Shown here in pieces: positions 27,628 through 43,249 of a stretch of DNA of 49,713 bases. The notes under the pieces are model-generated. The model saw only the letters and a program-made list of their open reading frames with translations, did not search any database and was not told the DNA's origin. How positions within the stretch are numbered: the stretch's first letter is position 1; each line of letters starts with the position of its first letter. The stretch is from a virus (taxonomy: Duplodnaviria; Heunggongvirae; Uroviricota; Caudoviricetes). The stretch lies in IMG/VR virus record IMGVR_UViG_2529292882_000007; one strand, written 5' to 3'. A program made the position numbers and the translations under genes.

Positions 27628-28284
27628 ATGAAAAGCAACGACGAGAACATCAAGAAAGAAATAGGTCTGCGCATTCAGACTCTACGGAAACAATCCGGCA
27701 TGACTGCCGGAGATCTCCAGCAAGTCACTGGAATAGGCTTAAGCACCTTGCAGAACTATGAGGCCGGATTAAGACAACCATCTATACCTGCCATCAAGAA
27801 AATCGCGCACGCCCTGAAAGCATCAGCGCCTTATATCGCGTGCTTAACAGATAACCCGTTCCCACCCCAGAATACTAACGCTCCTGTTATTCCTGGGCTT
27901 GTAGCTATAAAAAATGACATAGCATCGCACGCCGGAGAAAAGCCAGTGCTGGCGATAGAACAGGAGATTCTACGAAGCAAGAACATCAACCCATCGTCTC
28001 TGTCAGTTCTCCAGAGCAACGATGAGTTAATGTCACCAACAATATCCCCTGGCTCCCAAGTCCTGATTAATACAGACGATACAGAGATTCATGAGGGGAT
28101 CTATGCCCTTGAAGACAGAAATGGCCTGGTTGTTTTGAGGCACTGTAGAGTCATACCGGGTGACAATGCTGTTATGCTGTCAACCGAAAGGGATGCTGAA
28201 ATGAACACTAAGCATCTGAATAACGAGGAATTTAAGCGTTATAAAGTTCTTGGCCGCGTAGTTAGTGTTGTCAACTGGTTATGA
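27628..28284 (+). CDS. CI-like repressor (HTH-XRE plus S24/LexA-like C-terminal domain)
   Basis: N-terminal HTH; C-terminal region with MSP-type Ser motif. Confidence 0.65.
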   Translation: MKSNDENIKKEIGLRIQTLRKQSGMTAGDLQQVTGIGLSTLQNYEAGLRQPSIPAIKKIAHALKASAPYIACLTDNPFPPQNTNAPVIPGLVAIKNDIASHAGEKPVLAIEQEILRSKNINPSSLSVLQSNDELMSPTISPGSQVLINTDDTEIHEGIYALEDRNGLVVLRHCRVIPGDNAVMLSTERDAEMNTKHLNNEEFKRYKVLGRVVSVVNWL

Positions 28285-28886: not shown

Positions 28887-29555
28887 ATGGAGTCTCGACA
28901 AATGACTATCTCTGTAGGTATTTTCAACGGAAAAGGCGGCGTAACCAAATCAACAATTGCCCGTGCTTTAGCAGTTGCTTATGCAAAGGCCGGCTGGAAT
29001 GTATGCCTGATCGATATGGATGTGCTTAACGGAACGGTAACGCGTTGGGTACAACGCAGAATGGCCAACAATATCGAACCAGCAATCGCGGCACAGCCGT
29101 GCGGCACACCATCACAAGTCCAGAAAATCATCGAATCAGAAGTATACGACCTGGTTATCGTAGATGGCGGTGCCTACGCATCTGAATCAGTACCGAAGCT
29201 CTCTGAATTTCTGGATATGGTTATTTTGCCAACCAGATTCTCTACCGATGACCTGGAAACCACCGTTAACACAGCTCACGGCATCGTTAAAAAGGGTGTA
29301 CCAATCAAGAAAATTTGCATGGTGTTTTCCGGCGCGGCTGAAAACGAAGCTGACTATATTGAAGCCCAAGAGTACCTGGCTAATACGCCATACTTTGTTG
29401 TCGATAAGTACATTCCCCACAAGCCAGCTCTGAGCAAAGCTCAGGATAAGGGCTTAAGCCTCATTGAGTGCTCATACGTTGCGCCACGCAAAAAGGCAGA
29501 CGACGTTATTCAGGGGATTATCAACCAGCTTGAGGCTCTGACTACTGCCGCGTAA
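28887..29555 (+). CDS. ParA-family partition ATPase (small type Ib, ParF-like); probable start at 28902
   Basis: Deviant Walker A FNGKGGVTKST. Confidence 0.8.
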   Translation: MESRQMTISVGIFNGKGGVTKSTIARALAVAYAKAGWNVCLIDMDVLNGTVTRWVQRRMANNIEPAIAAQPCGTPSQVQKIIESEVYDLVIVDGGAYASESVPKLSEFLDMVILPTRFSTDDLETTVNTAHGIVKKGVPIKKICMVFSGAAENEADYIEAQEYLANTPYFVVDKYIPHKPALSKAQDKGLSLIECSYVAPRKKADDVIQGIINQLEALTTAA

Positions 29556-29598: not shown

Positions 29599-29847
29599 AT
29601 GGCCGCACCATCAAAACCACCAAAGAAGAACAGCAAAGGCGTACCGCCATCGATCGAACAACCGCAGGTTTTCGACCCGACTGAAACGCCAACCAGAACC
29701 AAATCAGGTGGGGCACAAATGGCGTTTAACGTCGACCCTGAATTTAAACGCGAGTACAAAACGTTCGCCAGCTCAATGGATATGTCATTGAAAGAAGTGC
29801 TGACAAAATCTTTTGAGTTACTCAAGGCTCAATACAACCAGAAGTAA
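29599..29847 (+). CDS. Putative ParG-like ribbon-helix-helix centromere-binding protein
   Basis: 82 aa, basic/Pro-rich N-terminal tail, RHH-like C-terminal region; immediately downstream of parA. Confidence 0.45.
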   Translation: MAAPSKPPKKNSKGVPPSIEQPQVFDPTETPTRTKSGGAQMAFNVDPEFKREYKTFASSMDMSLKEVLTKSFELLKAQYNQK

Positions 29848-30069: not shown

Positions 30070-30091
30070 AAAAAAGGCCCCCGAAGGGGCC
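30070..30091. terminator. Hairpin terminator between convergent small genes
   Basis: GGCCCC cgaa GGGGCC stem with flanking A-run/T-run. Confidence 0.55.
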
Positions 30092-30097
30092 TAATCG

Positions 30098-30220
30098 CTA
30101 CTTGCTGCTAATGTTTATCGTCACATTCAGAGCGTTATCAGTAATCTTCCAACCCTCCCCATGTGGCGTAAACAAAGCTCCAGTAACAACGATAAAAATA
30201 CACATGTAGTATTTTTTCAT
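30098..30220 (-). CDS. Small hydrophobic peptide (40 aa)
   Basis: MKKYYMCIFIVVTGALF...; AAGGG SD upstream of ATG 30220; strong terminator downstream. Confidence 0.35.
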   Translation of the reverse strand: MKKYYMCIFIVVTGALFTPHGEGWKITDNALNVTINISSK

Positions 30221-30606
30221 TGTGTGGCCCTTACAGGCCGTTTCACGGCATCCCCACCGACGAAAATGACGCGAGAGCAAGCACGCTGTTTGTGCCTGCG
30301 TGGTACGGCAAGTGGATAATCCTTTCCTGAAAGTCAGTGCCCGGGTGCGAATCGGCGGAAAGGCCCCAAGCCATATTACACGTCATACCCTTCATAATGA
30401 AGGAATAAAAAACGCTTTTATTACATAAGATTACACGTAAATAAGTTAAAAACCTTCATTTTGCATGAGCTAATGAGCTAAATTTTTTTATATGAATAGT
30501 GGACTATTCACCTCAGTTGGGTAAGAATGTAGTTGCTGTTTGTGCTTGCGTGGTTGTATTTATACAACAACGTAATGCTGAAAGGACCGCGAATCCGATC
30601 AGCACG

Positions 30607-31479: not shown

Positions 31480-31720
31480 ATCCCGCCGTATTGACATGAA
31501 TGCGCCATTGGTGGACACTTTCCGAGCCGTAGCAAAATCTACGGTCGGGATTAGCCTCCTGAATAACACGATGGCGCATACCGCGTTAGCGGTTTTTTTT
31601 ATGCGTAGAGCACTGTTACGCCCAAATTATGGTGGGTCGTACAGGGGCGGAGAAATCCGCGCCGGTTCGTCATTGTGTCCGGTAAGGCTAACCCTGTACG
31701 GCTCACCACCATTTGATTAG
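31480..31720 (+). ncRNA. Candidate structured regulatory RNA/leader upstream of the small-ORF/antirepressor operon
   Basis: TTGACA at 31491..31496; hairpin plus T8 at 31580..31600; long-range stem 31631..31646 with 31692..31710. Confidence 0.3.
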
Positions 31721-31762: not shown

Positions 31763-31954
31763 ATGACAAACCTACCCCATGACTATTACGTCAACCTCGT
31801 AAAGATCCTTCTCAAGAAAGCCTCATACGCCGATAAATTCCGCCTGGCTGAAATCATCGAGCGCGAAGCTATGCGCATCGCCAGCAACGATAACGCTGTT
31901 TCTGACGCAAAAATCTCCCTCGTAACCAAAGTAGTTATGGGAGGTGCAAAATGA
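31763..31954 (+). CDS. Small protein upstream of antirepressor (Icd-like position)
   Basis: ATG 31763 with GGAG SD; 63 aa; stop overlaps antirepressor start. Confidence 0.4.
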   Translation: MTNLPHDYYVNLVKILLKKASYADKFRLAEIIEREAMRIASNDNAVSDAKISLVTKVVMGGAK

Positions 31955-33102
31955 AAACGCTTCCGATCCTTAACACCCTACAGCCTATCCTGCATAATCA
32001 GATTCCAGTAATCACAACTGAGCTACTCGCCCGCCTTTATGGAACAGAAGCAATCCGTATACAGCAAAATCACCATGAAAATAAAACTCGGTTCATTGAG
32101 GGGAAGCACTTCTTTAAAGCTGTTGGTGATGAACTCAAAAATTTGCGACTAGTTTTAAACGAGTCACAAAATGAAGTGCAAATTTCCCCCAAAACTCGCT
32201 CTCTCATCCTCTGGACAGAACGCGGGGCTGCACGTCATGCCAAAATGCTTGAAACTAACCAAGCGTGGGATGTGTTCGAACGGCTGGAAGACAGCTATTT
32301 CAACCAGAACGCGCAAACGGCCGCGACCGTTACCGTCTCGCCAGACAATGCTCGTGAGGTTGTCGATACGCTCAACGCCAAACCGATGTTTTACATTAAG
32401 GTGTGCAACAACGAGCCACTCACAACCTCAGCCGATGTTGCCCAGGCATTCAGCACCACAAACAATTCCATCGTTATGGCCATCGATGCGTTACGCATTC
32501 CTCGCACGGCTGCGGCGCGTCACTTCTTTAAAGAACAACGACCGCTGGAAGGAAGCGACCGCGAAATAACAATCTATCGCATGACAAAAGACGGATTTAC
32601 CTTGCTCATGGAGAGCATCGACGGACCAGGCGTAAAAGATATCAAGCTGGCCTACATTGAGGCCTTTAACGCTATCAGCAGCGTGTTAAAAACACAGTAC
32701 GAGCGTGATCTGGCTAAACGACTGTACCAGGAAAAAACGATTATCCGCGCGGCAACAGAGCACAATCGGCTACTAACGGAACCGAACTACAGGAAGGAAC
32801 TAATCAAGGAGTTTGACAAGGCAACGGGGAAAACCAAAGCGGCGCTAAGTCTGCCAGCAATGACTCAGGAAAATGTGATATCAGCCTTACTTCTTGATCT
32901 GCTCAGAAACGCCAGAGCACTGATCAGCTTTGACGAAAACCTGAATCCTCAGCTCAAGCTACTACCACCGACAGGCAAAGTAGTCGACCAGGCAGATCAC
33001 AACAGCATACTCAGCGTACTGGATGCAAACCTACCAGCCAGGACACTACAGGAACTGATAAAGATATCTGCGGATAAACTGGCCGCAGGTGCAAAACCAT
33101 AA
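31951..33102 (+). CDS. Putative antirepressor (Ant-like N-terminal domain)
   Basis: 383 aa; N-terminal region ITTELLARLYGTE...GKHFFKAVG...LWTERGAARHAKMLETNQAW. Confidence 0.45.
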   Translation: MKTLPILNTLQPILHNQIPVITTELLARLYGTEAIRIQQNHHENKTRFIEGKHFFKAVGDELKNLRLVLNESQNEVQISPKTRSLILWTERGAARHAKMLETNQAWDVFERLEDSYFNQNAQTAATVTVSPDNAREVVDTLNAKPMFYIKVCNNEPLTTSADVAQAFSTTNNSIVMAIDALRIPRTAAARHFFKEQRPLEGSDREITIYRMTKDGFTLLMESIDGPGVKDIKLAYIEAFNAISSVLKTQYERDLAKRLYQEKTIIRAATEHNRLLTEPNYRKELIKEFDKATGKTKAALSLPAMTQENVISALLLDLLRNARALISFDENLNPQLKLLPPTGKVVDQADHNSILSVLDANLPARTLQELIKISADKLAAGAKP

Positions 33103-35287: not shown

Positions 35288-35587
35288 TCAGATGTTAAAC
35301 GCTATTCGTTTTCCTGTGGGAAGCTCAACATCCAAGCTTAATTTGCCTCCCATAGCTTCAACGTAACGCTTTAATGTCGCCAGCTTTAAATCATTTCCGC
35401 GCTGCTCCAGCTTTGTTACTGCTGGCTGGCTTATACCCATCGCCTCAGCAACCTGTTTTTGTGATAACTGGAGTTCTTCACGCATCATCTGCAAGCCGAC
35501 CTCAAGAATCATCTCATCTGCCATTTCTTTAATTCGCGCCTGGCTTTCAGGTGAACGGCTGGCAATCACCTCATCTAATGTTCTCAT
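35288..35587 (-). CDS. HTH-XRE antitoxin (HigA-like)
   Basis: HTH-like LQLSQKQVAEAMGISQPAVTKLE; downstream of and overlapping toxin gene. Confidence 0.55.
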   Translation of the reverse strand: MRTLDEVIASRSPESQARIKEMADEMILEVGLQMMREELQLSQKQVAEAMGISQPAVTKLEQRGNDLKLATLKRYVEAMGGKLSLDVELPTGKRIAFNI

Positions 35588-35940
35588 TACTTGCTCTCCA
35601 GTGTGTTCAGATGTGCTGCAAACTCATCCTCAGCTATACGCACCAGTTTTTCATAAAACCGTTTATCGTTACTTTTGTCTCCTGCACAAAGAACGATGGC
35701 CCGGCGAATCGGATCGAACGCATAAAAGGCTCTTATCGGACGGCCAGAAAACTGAACGCGAAGCTCTTTCATATTTTTGTACCGAGAACCTTTTACGGTA
35801 TCGGCATATGGCCTGGGTAACTCAGGTCCGTAAACCTGTAGCTTTTTCAAATCAGCCAAAACCTTTTCCTGAAGAGCGTCTTCTTGCTCATTTAGCCAGT
35901 CGTCAAATCGCTGGCTAAAAAGTACCGTCCACATGCTCAA
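35587..35940 (-). CDS. RelE/HigB-like toxin (Gp49-like addiction module killer)
   Basis: 117 aa; gene order toxin then antitoxin with 1-nt overlap. Confidence 0.5.
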   Translation of the reverse strand: MSMWTVLFSQRFDDWLNEQEDALQEKVLADLKKLQVYGPELPRPYADTVKGSRYKNMKELRVQFSGRPIRAFYAFDPIRRAIVLCAGDKSNDKRFYEKLVRIAEDEFAAHLNTLESK

Positions 35941-36178: not shown

Positions 36179-36469
36179 CTATTTTTGTGACTTTACTCCT
36201 GGCATATGGACTTCCCAGCGACGAATCCCCATAGCTGCGCAAAAATCAGCCACATAATTCAATCCCGCCCATTCGCGGATACCACCACGGGCTTTTTCAA
36301 TGAAAACGGCAATCCCTTTTTTATTGAGAGCAAAAAGCCGCCAGCTTTTTGTCACTTCGTCCTGGGTAGCCACAACACAAGTGAAAGCTCCCATGCGATA
36401 CAGGTCCAAGAACTCTTTGCGTGTTTTGCGTACAAGTTCCATAACAAACCTCATATTTGCATGTTTCAA
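36179..36469 (-). CDS. Hypothetical protein
   Basis: 96 aa; 4-nt overlap with upstream gene. Confidence 0.35.
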   Translation of the reverse strand: MKHANMRFVMELVRKTRKEFLDLYRMGAFTCVVATQDEVTKSWRLFALNKKGIAVFIEKARGGIREWAGLNYVADFCAAMGIRRWEVHMPGVKSQK

Positions 36470-36765
36470 ACATCTGTTTTGTTATCAATGAAGATTAACC
36501 CTAACCCAGCGAAGTAACACAGCAGCGCCCAGGCTGCATACGGAATGCTGGATCTGGATGTGGACTCCTTTAACATCTGCCAGTTGCGAACATTGCGACT
36601 ATCTTTTAAGCCAAGTTTTTTGGCCAACTGCGAGCCGCTCATTCCGGTCAGGCCAATGACTGCCCGAACTTCTCCACATGTAGGAGATTCCCATTCATCC
36701 GCTTTTTTTAAACAAGCCGGATTCAACATTTTTAAAACAGTATCTTTATCCATAACCATCTCCAT
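36466..36765 (-). CDS. Hypothetical protein, possible DNA-binding
   Basis: 99 aa; HTH-like GMSGSQLAKKLGLKDSRNVRNWQ. Confidence 0.35.
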   Translation of the reverse strand: MEMVMDKDTVLKMLNPACLKKADEWESPTCGEVRAVIGLTGMSGSQLAKKLGLKDSRNVRNWQMLKESTSRSSIPYAAWALLCYFAGLGLIFIDNKTDV

Positions 36766-36779
36766 TTATTATATCTACG

Positions 36780-37396
36780 ATGGTAGGAAATCTTTTCCTA
36801 CGTGGCAATAGAAATTTACTACATTGCGTATAAGACAAGTTTTCTATGTCTAATAGGAAATGATGTTTCTTACGTTTTATCGCGTTCTGATGGCTACTGT
36901 GTGCGTATTTATCGACGTTTATTGATAAGGCTCGCCCCTTCCTCCTGCAAAGCCCGGCCGTAGGCCTTATTTCGGCCTTATATAAATTGATTTTGTATAG
37001 TTCGAAACGCGCCGTTTCGAAAAGGATGATCAGGCTGCTCCATGCCTCCGGCAAGTGCCGGAGGAGGTATATTTGAGCGTAGCGACTCGAACCGGCGCGA
37101 GCTTTAGCTCGCTGCAAGGGCGAACATATTCACAGGCAAAGCCTGCGTAAGTTAAATAAAGAAAGTTTTAATAAAAGAAAGTGATTTTGCATTTATTTGT
37201 TTAGTGCATCTATTATAAAAAACCATTTGCATATACATATCAAAACTGTGGATAACTTTATTAGCCGATGCCTGTAAAGGCGATATTTTTGCTGTGTTCA
37301 GGTTTAGAGAAAATTAATTTAGATTGTTTTTTGAACAGATATTTTATTGCGACGTAGATAATCCTCCGGTAAAACCGGATTCATCATTCAGGTGGG
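36780..37396. other. Putative replication origin region downstream of repA
   Basis: DnaA box TGTGGATAA at 37247..37255; AT-rich 37130..37330; palindromes at 37001..37021, 37045..37064, 37097..37112. Confidence 0.45.
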
Positions 37397-38245
37397 TTAA
37401 TGTTGGAGTGATTTCCAGGTCTTTCTTAGCCTGTTATAACGCTGCTCAACGAGGGAGCGTAAATATGCAAGGTCAGCACCAGGATACATGCCATCAGCAA
37501 ATTCCTGGCTAACCTCTCTAGTGATTTGATGACGAAGTTCGGCCTCTCCCTTTTCCTGAACAAGACGCGCAGCTCTCTCCGCTGCTTTCTGTTTTGCCTT
37601 TATCTCTCTGGCCGTCTTCCTCTGACGCCATACATTCTCCATCTGCTCCTGAATAACAATACGCTTATAATCAGCCTCCGTTATCGCTTTTTTAAGCCGT
37701 TCGCTATTCTTCGCATTGAAGTAATTAAGTTTCTGGCTAACCGCACGTCTCCATGCTTGTTCAGTAATACCAACTGTTTCCAGCAGTTGATCACGAATCT
37801 CGATTTTCGCTGGCCAATACTGTTTATTCACCCGATCCCAGCGACGTTCATAATCAATAAAACCTAACTCTTTCAGTTGCGACAACGCCCTTGTACAGCG
37901 CGTTATAGACTTGTTCCCAGCTTCGGATACGGTAGACAGGCCGCAAAAATCAGCCAACGCCTCAGCACTGGCCAGAACCCGCTTAGAAATGATGTTTACA
38001 TGGTGCAAAATCGCAGCAATCACAGCATTAATCGCCCGACGACGATGCTCGTTTATCCGGCGTTTCCGCTCTGACGGTTGATTAACGTAGAACGCAACCT
38101 CACACGTAAGATCACGACCATTAATGCGCTGTAAAGCATCAGATAACACCAGCGGCAGCTTGTGCGTATGGTGCTTTGGAGGCTGGAACTCCGGCGACAA
38201 ATTACAAACGTAAGCTGAACGTAGAGACGGCATTGGTCTATCCAT
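37397..38245 (-). CDS. repA: Replication initiator RepA, IncFII RepA1-like (ORF track extends to alternative start 38389)
   Basis: Segment RRRAINAVIA...GNKSITRCTRALSQLKELGFIDYE resembles IncFII RepA1 RRRAIDALLQ...GKLSITRATRALTFLSELGLITYQ. Confidence 0.7.
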   Translation of the reverse strand: MDRPMPSLRSAYVCNLSPEFQPPKHHTHKLPLVLSDALQRINGRDLTCEVAFYVNQPSERKRRINEHRRRAINAVIAAILHHVNIISKRVLASAEALADFCGLSTVSEAGNKSITRCTRALSQLKELGFIDYERRWDRVNKQYWPAKIEIRDQLLETVGITEQAWRRAVSQKLNYFNAKNSERLKKAITEADYKRIVIQEQMENVWRQRKTAREIKAKQKAAERAARLVQEKGEAELRHQITREVSQEFADGMYPGADLAYLRSLVEQRYNRLRKTWKSLQH

Positions 38246-38289
38246 ATGTTCGCTCTTGCGTCCACGGAAAACCAACGTATAATGGGAGT

Positions 38290-38372
38290 TGTCGAGGCGC
38301 CCATGGTTAGTTGTTGGTTTTCCTTTCCGTGGATGTCGCAAGAAGCCCGCAGATTTATCTGCGGGCTTTTTG
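38290..38372 (+). ncRNA. Predicted CopA-like antisense RNA complementary to the repA leader
   Basis: Promoter -35 TTGCGT 38256..38261, 16-nt spacer, -10 TATAAT 38278..38283; terminator hairpin 38343..38371 with T-run. Confidence 0.5.
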
Positions 38373-38415
38373 TTTCCATATCTGGTCACTTTTCAACCAG
38401 ACACCCACAATCATA

Positions 38416-38430
38416 ACCACGTTACGTGGT
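38416..38430. promoter_or_regulatory. ACCACgttacGTGGT operator-like palindrome in repA upstream region
   Basis: Matches operator consensus seen at the CI/Cro intergenic region. Confidence 0.4.
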
Positions 38431-38560
38431 TTTAAGAGAACTCTACCACAACACTTTCGGTCATGCACGAAGTCTCTCACTGATCGAACGATAATCCACC
38501 AGTAAAAGGATCTAAATTGGATCTCGTTTTGCGAGCATCATACTACTGGCCTAACTCCAG

Positions 38561-39115
38561 TCAATGATTCCCAGCCGGAAACCTGCGGTAAAGCGTGGAT
38601 AAGGTAACATCGAAGATAATCGCTATCCGCTTACGTGAAACACCATTCGCAATAAGCCTTCCGATCTGTTCCCATTGCTCTGGTGCCAGTTTTGAGCGGC
38701 GTCCTCCTATCCTGCCGTTAGCCCTTGCCACCGCCAATCCTGCACGCGTTCTTTCAATCATATTTTCCCGCTCCATCTCTGCGACTGCACTCAGCATCGT
38801 GTAGGCAAAGCGGCCAATTGAAGTGCTAATTTTTATCCCTTCCGTAATCGAAATAAACTCAATGTTGTTTGATAAAAAATGGTTAAGTAAATCAACAAGA
38901 TGAATCAGAGAACGCCCCATTCGGTCCAGCTTCCAGACAATAACCGTATCGCCCGGTCGTAACACCTTCAGTAGCTTATCAAGTCCTGGTCGTTTTGATT
39001 TAGCACCGGATATTTTATCTTCAAAAATCCGGTCACATCCTGAACTCCTGAGCGCCTCCAGTTGTAATTCCAAATTCTGGTCAAAAGTTGACACCCTCGC
39101 ATAACCATATTGCAT
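38561..39115 (-). CDS. Serine DNA invertase (Hin/Gin/Cin/Pin family)
   Basis: N-terminal YARVSTFDQ catalytic motif; VWKLDRMGRS; C-terminal HTH; adjacent to invertible segment. Confidence 0.9.
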   Translation of the reverse strand: MQYGYARVSTFDQNLELQLEALRSSGCDRIFEDKISGAKSKRPGLDKLLKVLRPGDTVIVWKLDRMGRSLIHLVDLLNHFLSNNIEFISITEGIKISTSIGRFAYTMLSAVAEMERENMIERTRAGLAVARANGRIGGRRSKLAPEQWEQIGRLIANGVSRKRIAIIFDVTLSTLYRRFPAGNH

Positions 39116-39179
39116 ACTTTCTAAACCGCGATTGTTGCTAAAAGCGGGAAAAAATATCGTTCAGACGACACAGAGGCAA

Positions 39180-39205
39180 TTCGCAAAAACCTCGGTTTAC
39201 GAGAA
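39180..39205. repeat. gix/hix-like crossover site (proximal)
   Basis: TTCGCAAAAACCTCGGTTTACGAGAA; inverted relative to 41876..41901, shared core AAACCGAGGT. Confidence 0.7.
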
Positions 39206-39901
39206 CTCGGCACAAGCGGGGAAAAAATACCGTTACTCAGTACGGCGAATACCTGGACCAATCGACAAACATTCAGTGGTGGCCTTTCTGGGGAACTGTC
39301 CGGCAATGCCGCTACTGCAACAAAGCTGAAAACAGCACGAAAAATTGCTGGAGTTGGTTTTGATGGTTCTAGCGATATTTCAATTAGTGCCAAAAATGTC
39401 AATGCATTTGCACTCCGACAAACAGGTAATACTGTTAATGGTGATACATCCGTTGGATGGAATTGGGATAGTGGTGCATATAACGCCCTAATTGGTGGTG
39501 CATCTGCATTAATTCTTCACTTTAATATAAATGCTGGTAGCTGTCCTGCCGTACAATTCCGTGTGAATTATAAAAATGGTGGCATTTCCTACAGGTCGGC
39601 TCGTGATGGTTATGGGTTTGAATTAGGTTGGTCAGATTTCTATACCACGACACGAAAACCTTCAGCGGGAGATGTTGGTGCATATACTCAGGCAGAATGT
39701 AACTCAAGGTTTATTACAGGTATTCGCCTTGGCGGTCTGTCATCTGTTCAGACATGGAATGGCCCCGGCTGGTCTGACAGGTCAGGTTATGTCGTTACGG
39801 GTTCAGTTAACGGGAACCGTGACGAATTAATTGATACAACTCAGGCAAGGCCAATTCAGTATTGCATTAATGGGACTTGGTATAACGCGGGAAGTATTTA
39901 A
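39206..39901 (+). CDS. Alternative tail-fibre C-terminal segment, promoterless in this orientation
   Basis: Open frame from the crossover site; fibre-like NAATATKL motif; ends in NGTWYNAGSI like active fibre NGTWYNVAQV. Confidence 0.6.
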   Translation, partial: LGTSGEKIPLLSTANTWTNRQTFSGGLSGELSGNAATATKLKTARKIAGVGFDGSSDISISAKNVNAFALRQTGNTVNGDTSVGWNWDSGAYNALIGGASALILHFNINAGSCPAVQFRVNYKNGGISYRSARDGYGFELGWSDFYTTTRKPSAGDVGAYTQAECNSRFITGIRLGGLSSVQTWNGPGWSDRSGYVVTGSVNGNRDELIDTTQARPIQYCINGTWYNAGSI

Positions 39902-39903
39902 TT

Positions 39904-40437
39904 ATGATGCACTTAAAAAACATTACCGCTGGTAATCCTAAAACAGTGGAGCAGTACCAGCTAACAAAGCAATTTAACATTAAGTGGCTTTATTCAGATG
40001 ATGGAAAAAACTGGTATGAGGAACAAAAGAATTTCCAGCCAGACACTTTGAAAATGGTCTATGACCATAACGGCGTTATTATTTGCATTGAAAAGGATGT
40101 TTCAGCAATTAATCCAGAGGGGGCAAGCGTCGTTGAATTACCTGATATTACAGCAAATCGCCGGGCTGATATTTCGGGTAAATGGATGTTCAAAGATGGC
40201 GTAGTGATAAAGCGAACTTACACCGAGGAAGAGCAGAGGCAACAAGCGGAAAATGAAAAGCAAAGCCTGTTGCAACTTGTCAGGGATAAAACCCAGCTAT
40301 GGGACTCACAGCTACGGCTGGGCATCATTTCCGACGAGAATAAACAAAAATTAACCGAGTGGATGCTCTACGCGCAGAAAGTCGAATCCACAGACACCTC
40401 CAGCCTGCCAGTAACGTTTCCCGAACAACCAGAATGA
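39904..40437 (+). CDS. Tail fibre assembly chaperone (alternative copy)
   Basis: 177 aa, about 65 percent identical to 40466..40993 product. Confidence 0.75.
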   Translation: MMHLKNITAGNPKTVEQYQLTKQFNIKWLYSDDGKNWYEEQKNFQPDTLKMVYDHNGVIICIEKDVSAINPEGASVVELPDITANRRADISGKWMFKDGVVIKRTYTEEEQRQQAENEKQSLLQLVRDKTQLWDSQLRLGIISDENKQKLTEWMLYAQKVESTDTSSLPVTFPEQPE

Positions 40438-40465
40438 GAGAAGGCCCGCTATCGGGCCTTAATTT

Positions 40466-40993
40466 TTACTCTGGTTTTTGTGGCCATTCTGGCTTTGCCG
40501 TATCCACGCGGCTGACCAGAACGCTGTAGCGTTCCCATGACTCCAGTCGTGTACGCTCCTCATCTGTTGCCATATTCAATCTGACAGCGCGTTCCAGTGG
40601 CTGGATAACTGATTCAGCTTCGGAAAGTAACGCGGACTTTTGTGATTCAGCCTGTTGTTGCTGTTCGTCTTCCGTATAAATCCGTTTAACCACAGCTCCA
40701 TCCTTAAACATCCACTTCCCTGAATCATCGGCACGACGATTAGCTGTTATATCGGGAACCTCAACGACGCTAAAACCTTCAGGATTAAGCGTGGAGGCAT
40801 CTTTAGTGATGGCGACAATAATATTATTTTCGTCGTAAACAATCTTTATTGTGTCTTCCTGAAAATTATTTACTTCCTCATACCAGTTTTTATCATCTTC
40901 GGACCATAACCATATAACATCAAAATTCTTTGTTAGCTGATATTGTTCTTTTGTTTTTGGATTTCCTGATCTGATATTTTTTAAATGCTGCAT
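40466..40993 (-). CDS. Tail fibre assembly chaperone (active orientation)
   Basis: 175 aa immediately downstream of tail fibre gene. Confidence 0.75.
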
Positions 40994-40996
40994 AAT

Positions 40997-43249
40997 TTAT
41001 ACCTGTGCGACGTTATACCATGTGCCATTGATGTATTTCTGAATTGGTCTGAAAATAGCTTCATCATCGCCATCAACTTCACCAATAATTCTTAATCCGG
41101 TAAGTGCGTGTCCGGCAATCTCATAACGCCCGCCGCGTGACATTAATTGAACAACTCGCGTACCAAGCCGGACATCTCCCACATAGCGAGAGTCAAAATT
41201 GCTGTAATTGGATGGGATAACCTGTCCGTGCACATTCAGACCGTGCCCCATAGTAACAAGACCAGTATTAAGCGCGATATAGAATGGACGAAGACCATTC
41301 CAGCTACCGTACTGGTCACCACTGGCAGTAAATAACAGATACAAGCTGCCACCATCCTGTCGCAGAATTGCACCATAATTTCCTGCAATCATCCTTAAAG
41401 CATTCTGTGATGTAGTTATCAGTTCCCCAGTCATGGTATCGCCAGCACGATTCCAGTCGCGACGCCAGCCAGGCGCGTAGGTGTCACCATGATTAATATA
41501 AGTAAATTGCGCTTTTGCTGTACCGTTCGTTGCAGTTGTTGGAGTAGTGACGCGAATAGTCATTGCGCTCTTGGTGCCCATCACTTCAACCACCGAGCCA
41601 GCAAGTTGAATATTCCCGCAACCTGTATCTGTAATAATTTTATTATTGGCGTAAGACCATGAACCTTTGCACATCCAGTATGGGTGATTAAATGCCCCCT
41701 GAGACTCCAGCCACGCAATAAACTGTGCTGTCGTCCAGTTGCTGCTATCTCCTCCAATATTGATACTTCCGCTGGCCGCTTTCGCTGCACCAATATTTTT
41801 TGTGAAAGTATCTTTCCCTGGAATATCCGCACCGTTCTGGTTTTTCTGCAATGCACCAGAAGCCTTGTTTATCGTTTCCTGCAAACCGAGGTATCCGATA
41901 ACGGCAGCAACGGTCGATTTCGCAAGAATATCCCGCCCGACTTTTGTCAGGGTTGCCAGGCTGGCGACATCATTCCCCGTAAAATACGGAAACTTGTCTG
42001 CCGCAGTAGCAAGCCCGGCCAGCGCCGTCAGGGTGGCATCTTTCGGTTGCTTACCCGCAAGCGCGTTAGTCATGGTGGTCGCAAAATTCGGGTCGTTTCC
42101 CAGCGCCGCCGCTAACTCGTTCAGCGTATTCAGTGCGTCAGGCGACGAGTCCACGAGGGCAGCGATCGCAGCCATAACATAAGCCGTGCTTGCGATCTGA
42201 GTATTGTTAGTACCTTTTGGCGCAGTTGGTGTTGTTGGTGTTCCGGTCAGCGCCGGACTGTTCAGGGGCGCTTTCTTGTTCGTTTCATCCATTACCACCT
42301 TTACAGCTTTCGATGTCGCGGCCAGTGTTTCAGACGTGCTGTTGGTGGCACTACTGAGCTGAGTTATTCCCCTTACAGTCAGTGAAGCTACAGGCACATT
42401 TGTTATCTGCGCCCACGAATGCGTGTGATTGGACGGAGCCTTTCCGGCCGCAAGATCATACGCTGCCTTAACAGCCTTTGGTGTTGCTGCCAGCGTTTCA
42501 GACGTGCTGTTGGTGGCACTACTGAGCTGAACAATCCCTTTTCGCGCTGTGGTAGCGTCCTGTGCGGTGTATTTAGCGTTAGCCAGGTCATATGCTGCCT
42601 TAACAGCCTTAGGCGTCGCAGCAAGCGTTTCAGACGTGCTATTGGTGGCGCTGCTAAGTTGAACAAAGCCTTTTGAGGTTAAAGTTGCATCAGGATGATT
42701 ACGTGATTGCTCATGTTTCACAATGGCTTGCTTAAGCCGCTTTGCTGAAACAGCAAGGGAATCATCTGTACCTGCATCAATTTCTTGTTCATTAGCAAAT
42801 CTTGCCACCCCAACAACAGTTTCGGTCGCGGGAGGATTAATAAACTCAATATCACCAAATGTAATATTTTTAGTATCAAGAGTTTTAATTGCTATATCAC
42901 TTGATATTAAAGCGATAGTAGATGATGCTTTATTTATTATTGCTTGTTCTTGTGAGTATACAGCAAACAACGTACCCTTATTCGTATACAATCCTATTGT
43001 ATGGACAACATACTCATCTTTACTATCATCCTTCGCTGTCACATGAATTGTATCAGGGGAAACAACTTTGCCACCTATTGTGGTAAGTCGTTTTATTTCG
43101 TTTGTTATATTTGTTTGTGAAGTTGACGTGACATAATATCTACTACCTAAACCAACAGAAACAATCTCAACTTTATTTGTTCCTGTTTTGTTGGCATTAA
43201 CCAGCTCCTGACGCCCGGCGTCAGTCATCGTAAATAATAATTTACTCAC
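40997..43249 (-). CDS. Tail fibre protein
   Basis: 750 aa; three tandem QLSSATNSTSETLAATPKAVKAAYDLA repeats; crossover site inside gene at 41876..41901. Confidence 0.8.
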   Translation of the reverse strand: MSKLLFTMTDAGRQELVNANKTGTNKVEIVSVGLGSRYYVTSTSQTNITNEIKRLTTIGGKVVSPDTIHVTAKDDSKDEYVVHTIGLYTNKGTLFAVYSQEQAIINKASSTIALISSDIAIKTLDTKNITFGDIEFINPPATETVVGVARFANEQEIDAGTDDSLAVSAKRLKQAIVKHEQSRNHPDATLTSKGFVQLSSATNSTSETLAATPKAVKAAYDLANAKYTAQDATTARKGIVQLSSATNSTSETLAATPKAVKAAYDLAAGKAPSNHTHSWAQITNVPVASLTVRGITQLSSATNSTSETLAATSKAVKVVMDETNKKAPLNSPALTGTPTTPTAPKGTNNTQIASTAYVMAAIAALVDSSPDALNTLNELAAALGNDPNFATTMTNALAGKQPKDATLTALAGLATAADKFPYFTGNDVASLATLTKVGRDILAKSTVAAVIGYLGLQETINKASGALQKNQNGADIPGKDTFTKNIGAAKAASGSINIGGDSSNWTTAQFIAWLESQGAFNHPYWMCKGSWSYANNKIITDTGCGNIQLAGSVVEVMGTKSAMTIRVTTPTTATNGTAKAQFTYINHGDTYAPGWRRDWNRAGDTMTGELITTSQNALRMIAGNYGAILRQDGGSLYLLFTASGDQYGSWNGLRPFYIALNTGLVTMGHGLNVHGQVIPSNYSNFDSRYVGDVRLGTRVVQLMSRGGRYEIAGHALTGLRIIGEVDGDDEAIFRPIQKYINGTWYNVAQV
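41876..41901. repeat. gix/hix-like crossover site (distal, inside tail fibre gene)
   Basis: TTCCTGCAAACCGAGGTATCCGATAA encoding fibre residues ...GYLGLQE... Confidence 0.7.

Follow-up and report, generated by a model that had tools for sequence, protein, structure and literature searches.

How a phage genome could persist as a plasmid, and what would then hold its copy number in check, is the question raised by positions 36,780 to 38,560 of IMG/VR record IMGVR_UViG_2529292882_000007, a 49,713-nucleotide stretch of Caudoviricetes DNA (here called the window). A preliminary description had proposed that this segment is an IncFII-type plasmid replicon inside a prophage, with a CopA-like antisense RNA encoded in the leader of the initiator gene repA. 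The explanation that we favor, and to which as a whole we assign a probability of about 0.68, is that the window is a ~48 kb myovirus-type phage-plasmid of E. coli, that the segment contains its lysogenic (plasmid-state) basic replicon, and that an antisense RNA sets copy number by refolding the repA leader. Taken separately, a functional replicon controlled by this RNA is highly probable from the comparative evidence, and for the specific refolding step, which comes from modeled folds, we put the odds at about even.

That a real plasmid replicon lies within the phage is supported by its initiator. The open reading frame (ORF) at 37397-38389 on the minus strand matches PF02387 (IncFII_repA) with an E value of 5.5e-44 and 151 bits against a cutoff of 22.9, over profile positions 2-272 of 275, and RepA passes the NCBIfam model NF040977 (RepA_IncFII_LM) with 233 bits against a cutoff of 70. 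The label "IncFII-type," however, had to be abandoned. RepA fails the incFII_RepA equivalog model TIGR03474 with 81.9 bits against a cutoff of 446.9, a model on which a genuine IncFII RepA scores 583 bits, and BLASTP aligned it with the classical IncFII RepA over a 97-residue core only (41% identity). With RepA of the Klebsiella plasmid L074, which has an IncL/M-type leader, the alignment covered 274 residues at 37% identity. We conclude that RepA, as judged by its profile matches, is not classical IncFII and is a member of the IncFII/IncL-M superfamily (PF02387, NF040977). Its start is likely either ATG 38245 or ATG 38233, as the RepA starts of relatives correspond to one or the other. Homologues of RepA fall into tiers: ~100% identity in E. 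coli, 81 to 85% in Salmonella and K. aerogenes, and 58 to 63% in a mixed set. By clade A, we mean the E. coli tier, the 81-to-85% tier, and one relative at 62% identity (L012) that is counted in for its clade A leader. By clade B, we mean phage-plasmid-like contigs from Citrobacter and metagenomes within the 58-to-63% tier, the same tier that includes L006, a conjugative-type contig with VirB-type genes. Scans of viral and metagenome contigs by RepA found little further diversity beyond clades A and B. We also note that in a 49-kb plasmid of Salmonella salamae (L004; CP053324.1), repA aligns in two frames (residues 2-185 and 182-282), as the result either of a frameshift that made it a pseudogene or of an error in sequencing.

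Whether the element lives outside the chromosome is answered by where it occurs. The 49.7 kb window is essentially the whole phage-plasmid, and its replicon stretch matches, at 98.4 to 98.6% identity, vB_YpM_39, 41, and 44 (49 kb each), which were deposited as Yersinia phages; the matching phage records carry annotated structural genes. At least 57 PLSDB plasmid records match the replicon stretch at 95 to 99.8% identity, with sizes of 32 to 94 kb, mostly 46 to 52 kb; they include the plasmid of E. coli ATCC 25922 (CP009073), and the records inspected are circular. The replicon was found in 71 of 5,426 complete E. coli genomes (about 1.3%), at 82 places, all of them on plasmids (82/82) and none on a chromosome (0/82). 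Because of this distribution, plasmid replication of the prophage, as had been proposed, is well supported, and the element is extrachromosomal, never chromosomal in the genomes surveyed. Thus, a virion-forming phage genome, attested by the deposited phage genomes, is combined with extrachromosomal upkeep, attested by the plasmid records, as expected of a phage-plasmid. The phage-plasmid occurs also in Salmonella and Klebsiella, and its ~48 kb group was absent from the groups screened or named in the phage-plasmid surveys that we searched. Three leads were rejected. The two copies in record NZ_CP032086.1 (94 kb) come from the ATCC 25922 plasmid having been assembled as a linear concatemer and are not coresident variants; the pSLy3 group is part of the SSU5 supergroup and not this element; and vB_YpM_HQ103, a phage of 32 kb, is unrelated.

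How the replicon is controlled appears to be written on the strand opposite repA. There, the promoter of the putative antisense RNA (Table 1) had been called near-consensus, a term that fits the perfect -10 hexamer and overstates the -35 hexamer, which matches TTGACA at only three of six positions. For that reason, the promoter is not listed by a consensus scan requiring at least four of six matches per hexamer. The hairpin and T-run terminator had been placed accurately: the core GCCCGCAGA-TTTA-TCTGCGGGC lies at 38345-38366 and is followed by TTTTTGTTT, and its G+C-rich stem of 9 bp can be extended to 16 bp. A terminator scan missed it because an upstream A-run pairs with the T-run and absorbs the latter into the stem. 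The 86-nt RNA folds at -40.6 kcal/mol (z = -6.6), and none of 200 shuffled sequences was as stable. In Rfam, no family for the RNA was found at the gathering threshold or at E <= 10, and the best match, Thr_leader (34.6 bits against a cutoff of 55), was dismissed as a generic resemblance to any hairpin plus terminator.

The case for an ~85-nt antisense RNA gene in the repA leader, another proposal of the preliminary description, gains strong backing from comparison. The elements of the control region, their conservation, and their covariation were computed from 52 copies, which reduce to 28 distinct sequences in two clades with RepA only ~60% identical between them. The -10 hexamer TATAAT is invariant in 28/28 distinct sequences, the -35 hexamer is TTGC(G/A)T in both clades, and the first ~14 nt of the RNA (GAGUUGUCGAGGC) are invariant across clades A and B. 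The cassette stays with repA even as the upstream neighbor changes among invertase, tail-fiber assembly, glycosyltransferase, and acyltransferase genes. Moreover, the predicted folds of the 22 distinct RNA homologues agree throughout on two hairpins. In stem-loop 2, all 13 pairs are formed in every one of the 22 sequences (100% paired), and three of the 13 have changed on both sides; stem-loop 1 of clade A is 98% paired, two of its pairs are compensatory, and three invariant G-U pairs would turn into A-C mismatches in the mRNA. A clade A covariance model found one copy only in the window (99.9 bits) and scored 32 to 33 bits in clade B; it had no match upstream of repA in L006, L016, L069-L072, or L074, and a scan of genome contigs with a 21-nt core motif gave only chance matches in unrelated metagenome-assembled genomes. 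The promoter, the RNA 5' end, both hairpins, the DnaA box, and the hairpins downstream of repA are all kept in relatives with only ~60% RepA identity, and thus the conservation of the replicon elements exceeds chance.

Where the control region does vary is equally telling. Haplotype diversity in a set of 15 distinct E. coli-type replicons (1,636 bp with 94 variable columns) peaks at 38302-38323, with seven haplotypes per 12 columns compared to a median of one, and variable sites within 38216-38388 are confined to that interval. The interval is the loop of stem-loop 1, and in clade B, the hypervariable segment likewise falls at the apical loop of that hairpin. Antisense RNAs that determine incompatibility classically show just such a variable recognition loop within an otherwise frozen leader, and to judge from the alignments, the predicted RNA does too. 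The common loop allele is AACAACAACAAT, and the window has a different one. We note that the window allele contains a 5-nt tandem duplication, GGAAA (38313-38332), in the 5' arm of the leader hairpin, which is shared by only 5 of the 52 copies, adds a bulge to the leader hairpin, and enlarges the loop of the antisense RNA.

How the RNA would inhibit repA is suggested by the folding of the leader. RepA would be made from a single promoter (38564-38537) through the ~285-nt leader, and a constitutive plus-strand RNA, fully complementary to part of that leader, would set copy number. The full length of the RNA is thus complementary to the rep leader, and the RNA has its own promoter and terminator and is conserved with rep, the features of an antisense-RNA-controlled theta replicon. 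In the free leader, a long hairpin with an invariant inner hairpin and loop (38304-38282) is present in the minimum-energy fold of every leader tested; 92.7% of its alignment cells are paired, and three pairs have changed on both sides. Of the two arms, only the 5' one has a complement in the antisense RNA, since the 3' arm contains the promoter of that RNA. When the 5' arm was blocked in silico, the released 3' arm CGUUGGUUUUCCGUG paired with UAUGGAUAGACCAAUG (-21 kcal/mol locally), burying ATG 38245 and ATG 38233 and leaving the Shine-Dalgarno sequence AAGAG (38257-38253) in a 4-nt loop. This anti-start helix is predicted in 7/7 clade A variants despite differing sequence between the two ATGs. 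Folds of L007 and L011 give an equivalent clade B helix from a different sequence, which by our reading pairs GUGUGG with CCACAC and CCUGGC with GCCAGG. Antisense-induced refolding is proposed because of the compensation in the leader hairpin and because the alternative helix is predicted in both clades. The hypervariable loop of the first hairpin would be the first to touch its complement in the leader, pairing would then extend along the 5' arm, and the freed 3' arm would pair with the start-codon region, hiding both candidate ATGs and the Shine-Dalgarno sequence. As copy number rose, the dose of RNA would rise with it, and RepA translation would fall. We infer both that the RNA is made and that it is inhibitory.

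Table 1. Coordinates of the replicon and of its proposed control elements in the window
Feature	Position	Strand	Details
Basic replicon, theta-type, complete	36925-38564	minus	promoter, leader, repA, DnaA box, AT-rich repeats, hairpin cluster
repA promoter	38535..38564	minus	-35 TTGACT 38564-38559, 16-nt spacer, -10 TATGAT 38542-38537
repA mRNA leader	38246..38530	minus	about 285-290 nt; antisense target in its downstream part
repA, replication initiator	37397..38245	minus	282 aa; 278 aa if the start is 38233
Antisense RNA promoter (putative)	38256..38283	plus	-35 TTGCGT 38256-38261, 16-nt spacer, -10 TATAAT 38278-38283
Predicted antisense RNA, ~85 nt	38290..38375	plus	single-stranded 5' tail, stem-loop 1 (38296-38337), terminator stem-loop 2 (38339-38375)
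Hypervariable loop of stem-loop 1	38302..38323	plus	presumed specificity (incompatibility) determinant
Rho-independent terminator of antisense RNA (predicted)	38339..38375	plus	stem-loop 2
Long repA mRNA hairpin (predicted ON state)	38262..38332	minus	5' arm 38332-38313 pairs with 3' arm 38276-38262
Alternative anti-start helix (predicted OFF state)	38231..38276	minus	CGUUGGUUUUCCGUG with UAUGGAUAGACCAAUG; constrained folds
Post-repA hairpin	37360..37381	minus	CCGG/CCGG to CCAG/CUGG between clades, compensatory
Origin core	37135..37255	minus	DnaA box TTATCCACA 37255-37247; three ATGCA(A) repeats (37232, 37209, 37192); AT-rich stretch
Cluster of five conserved hairpins	36952..37147	minus	covarying stems

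Several results weigh against this explanation. Equilibrium folding of the whole free leader leaves the Shine-Dalgarno sequence partly base-paired as well, to CUUCUUGCG, and mean pairing over the stretch from the Shine-Dalgarno sequence to the ATG is higher in the free leader (0.81) than in the bound leader (0.56). Thus, the ON state may need another factor, such as an IncL/M-like pseudoknot, an activator contact, or cotranscriptional folding, and any activator contact might be made by the invariant 13-nt loop at the apex of the hairpin, CGCCUCGACAACU. Moreover, the covariation statistics are modest, as many stem pairs never vary and the sequences are related; loop variation lies partly in a (CAA)n-like repeat, where slippage may contribute alongside selection; and the antisense -35 hexamer is weak. 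The partly paired Shine-Dalgarno sequence and the invariant loop, otherwise unexplained, would fit an inhibitory RNA that acts as in the IncL/M and I-complex plasmids, either by sequestering the loop of an activating pseudoknot or by blocking a short leader ORF. In the Salmonella variants, the first ATG indeed begins a short ORF, out of frame with repA and overlapping its start, and the Rfam leader PK-repBA lies directly upstream of repA in relatives with RepA identities of 63% (L006), 37% (L074), and 33% (L070). IncL/M-type control is therefore widespread in this branch of RepA, but the phage-plasmid clades carry something else: neither PK-repBA nor PK-repZ was found in the window at E <= 10, and Rfam searches found a pseudoknot leader (RF01089 or RF01087) in none of the clade A and clade B loci tested. 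An ancestral IncL/M pseudoknot leader may have been lost in this lineage. Furthermore, by our reading of the alignments, no conserved complement of the loop of at least 5 nt occurs near the ribosome-binding site (3 to 4 nt at most), and the first ATG of the window is in frame with repA and so provides no separate leader peptide. We consider an IncL/M-like mode of inhibition unlikely.

Another possibility, and one to which we give considerably less credence, is that the RNA acts mainly at the RNA level, by premature termination or by RNase III cleavage and decay of the duplex, and not by occluding the start codon. The terminator hairpin forms in the mRNA too, and a perfect duplex of 85 bp would be an RNase III substrate, by the example of the CopA-CopT pair. 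Only the plus strand, however, has a usable U-tract; in the mRNA, what comes after the hairpin is UUCUUGCG in the window and CUCUGCGG in clade B. Moreover, antisense binding cannot induce this hairpin, which sits at the 5' edge of the target rather than further downstream. Finally, the hexamers and the hairpin could be unrelated, such that the hairpin ends read-through from neighboring genes, there is no regulatory RNA, and copy number is controlled in some other way. A weak -35 hexamer is compatible with coincidence, as is the finding that a promoter scan of the 2-kb stretch yields no more sites than shuffled sequence. Coincidence, however, would not account for a cassette kept with repA beside four different neighbor genes, for a -10 hexamer invariant across ~40% RepA divergence, or for a hypervariable loop in an otherwise invariant leader. 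There is also no upstream plus-strand gene that needs termination, no iterons were seen, and to our knowledge, all characterized members of the RepA superfamily use antisense control. We regard coincidence as the most improbable of these alternatives and retain antisense-induced refolding as the preferred explanation.

The rest of the leader adds further features. The repA promoter matches the consensus at 10 of 12 positions in the consensus scan and overlaps the stop codon of a DNA invertase gene, which is only 315 nt from repA; in the leader alignment, TTGACT with TATCAT or TATGAT is kept in Salmonella, K. aerogenes, and metagenome relatives. Just past the promoter lie three GATC sites on the minus strand (38523, 38512, and 38485), and paired GATCC motifs are kept in clade A relatives; Dam methylation or SeqA may influence repA transcription. 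Two structures lie upstream of the antisense target: a conserved palindrome with a variable center, AACCACG-N3-CGTGGTT (38431-38415), and a hairpin (38402-38380) with arms that covary between relatives.

Whether the leader also encodes a peptide was considered separately. An ORF check and the leader alignment revealed no conserved ORF in the gap between the invertase gene and repA, and an ORF search upstream of repA found neither a tap- or repB-like peptide nor a copB gene in the window. The frame that is open from ATG 38245 back to GTG 38389 was rejected as coding because it lacks conservation and is shifted by indels of the hypervariable loop, and a 108-amino-acid ORF from 38379 was rejected as a leader peptide because it is not conserved and its frame shifts between near-identical plasmids. 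The first ATG has a good Shine-Dalgarno sequence, and its frame relative to repA varies by lineage: in the window and L012, it is in frame, four to five codons upstream, and in the Salmonella variants, it is out of frame. In clade B, the first ATG is the start of a 162-codon ORF, which overlaps the repA start codon at a terminal ATGA. This 162-amino-acid ORF (3516-4004 in L007, also in L008, L010, L013, and L014; ~60% RepA identity) is conserved between the control region and repA and has only weak winged-helix matches (HTH_24, E = 2e-4). It could encode an extra, translationally coupled replication protein or be a very long leader. We also note that repA as annotated by the Prokaryotic Genome Annotation Pipeline is often extended N-terminally by ~44 residues (WP_228465520.1, 326 amino acids; in the window, 38377-38389). 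The extension crosses the terminator and the target of the antisense RNA, and it is probably overlong, because it is not conserved and its frame is shifted by hypervariable-loop indels.

Downstream of repA, the DnaA box and AT-rich region of the preliminary description were both found. The box is perfect and lies 142 nt past the repA stop codon, and positions 37135-37246 are 74% A+T, compared to 56% for the whole window. In a comparison of 10 replicons that included the conjugative-type relative, the post-repA hairpin, the block GTTATCCACAGTTTT with the DnaA box, the ATGCA(A) repeats, the AT-rich tract, and the hairpin cluster were kept in clade A, clade B, and L006. Stems of the cluster covary as CAGGC/GCCUG, CAGCU/AGCUG, and CAGAC/GUCUG, and as GCGAGC/GCUCGC versus GCGGCG/CGCCGC. 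Against the region downstream of repA in L074, the origin core gave a 44-nt match at 77% identity, and the hairpin cluster gave a 51-nt match at 84% identity (E = 2e-10). No sequence similarity was found between the window origin and the origin of the IncFII control plasmid. RepA, probably together with DnaA, would open the origin 140 to 260 nt downstream of repA, and the hairpin cluster further downstream would probably provide a priming signal, possibly a single-strand one, for leading-strand synthesis.

Other genes in the window also bear on maintenance. The preliminary description had cited ParA/ParG and HigBA. A family match confirmed the ParA ATPase (28887-29555), and the HigB-type toxin with its helix-turn-helix (HTH) antitoxin (35288-35940) was likewise confirmed, but the ORF named ParG (29599-29847, after parA) had no family match. 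A CI-like repressor with an S24 peptidase domain is encoded at 27628-28284. By Rfam, isrK (65.7 bits) and then a C4 antisense RNA (70.8 bits) lie at 31526-31713 on the plus strand, directly upstream of an ORF6N/Rha-domain gene (31951-33102, plus), and from these matches, the region looks like the immI-type antirepressor control region of P1/P7. A full-length ryfA match (134.6 bits) lies at 30070-30368 on the minus strand beside the partition genes, and a second is found near the replicon of the clade B relative L007 (8571-8834). Perhaps ryfA serves these phage-plasmids as a type I toxin-antitoxin addiction module and moves along with them. At 38561-41000, a Hin/Cin-type DNA invertase gene stands beside oppositely oriented tail-fiber assembly genes and alternative tail-fiber C termini; this is an invertible host-range segment that abuts the repA promoter. 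On the other side, positions 36780-36810 lie outside the replicon and form the promoter/operator of the next gene, with the palindrome TAGGAAA-N3-TTTCCTA (36784-36800). Behind this conserved operator are two small conserved genes (36179-36765, minus) for a 99-amino-acid protein, with a weak match to the HTH "mobile mystery protein A," and a 96-amino-acid protein.

Part of what is described here is already known. The element and its repA are in public databases as a plasmid initiator, and antisense control of the initiator family is textbook knowledge. The RNA and its leader architecture, the replacement of the IncL/M-type pseudoknot module in two clades, and the hypervariable loop appear to be new, as none was found in the literature searched, and neither was any description of replication control for this phage-plasmid. 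With the control RNA known, copy number becomes accessible and compatibility can be typed, the latter because the loop allele is the variable site, and the element, carriers of which include the quality-control strain ATCC 25922, can be cured. RefSeq annotations in which repA extends across the RNA gene are corrected as well. If the model is true, loop types decide which near-identical phage-plasmids can share a cell and which displace each other. For plasmid biology, an exchange of antisense control architecture within one initiator family is an incremental advance and no surprise in principle.

How the replicon relates to known systems depends on which of its parts is compared. To IncFII plasmids R1 and R100 (copB, CopA/CopT, tap, repA, oriR), it is related by the Pfam family of RepA and by logic, in that a constitutive two-stem-loop antisense RNA of ~90 nt controls repA translation. 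The DnaA box follows the repA stop codon by 142 nt in the window and by 175 nt in the IncFII control plasmid, and the origin is AT-rich in both. In contrast, copB and tap are annotated in the IncFII control but occur nowhere in the window, and the recognition loop of CopA is in the second, terminator-proximal hairpin, whereas that of the window RNA would be in the first. Thus, "CopA-like" holds for function and geometry but not for family membership: Rfam CopA (RF00042) has no match in the window at the gathering threshold or at E <= 10 and scores 89.7 bits in the true IncFII control (L073).

Closer in sequence are the IncL/M plasmids (pMU604 and pCTX-M3; repCBA, RNA I, pseudoknot), the published control mechanism of which is summarized in PMC8125031. 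The same NF040977 model covers their RepA, the origin is downstream of repA with homologous DnaA-box and hairpin blocks, and an ~80-nt antisense RNA arises from within the leader, its -10 box at the corresponding position. The window differs, however, in that it has neither a PK-repBA match nor a UUGGCG/CGCCAA loop motif (UUUA forms the terminator loop) and lacks both a repB leader peptide and a repC gene. The IncL/M antisense RNA is one long hairpin, but the window RNA would form two, with recognition apparently in the 5' hairpin and not in the terminator hairpin, and the inhibition that we propose is refolding and not pseudoknot blocking. Of the single long stem-loop, the CGCCAA loop, and the translationally coupled leader peptide of control as in pMU604 and the I-complex plasmid ColIb-P9, none was found in the window. 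We speculate, somewhat tentatively, that two phage-plasmid clades swapped an IncL/M-type pseudoknot and leader peptide for a two-hairpin RNA that refolds the leader, and that a fast-evolving loop then gave rise to many incompatibility types.

Finally, among phage-plasmids, the element shares with P1 (RepA with iterons), SSU5/pHCM2 (RepB), and N15 (RepA) a plasmid replicon, partition and toxin-antitoxin functions, and the life of a temperate phage that does not integrate. It differs from them in its initiator family and in the principle of control. Copy number in P1 is controlled by iteron handcuffing, and in the window, control would fall to an antisense RNA.

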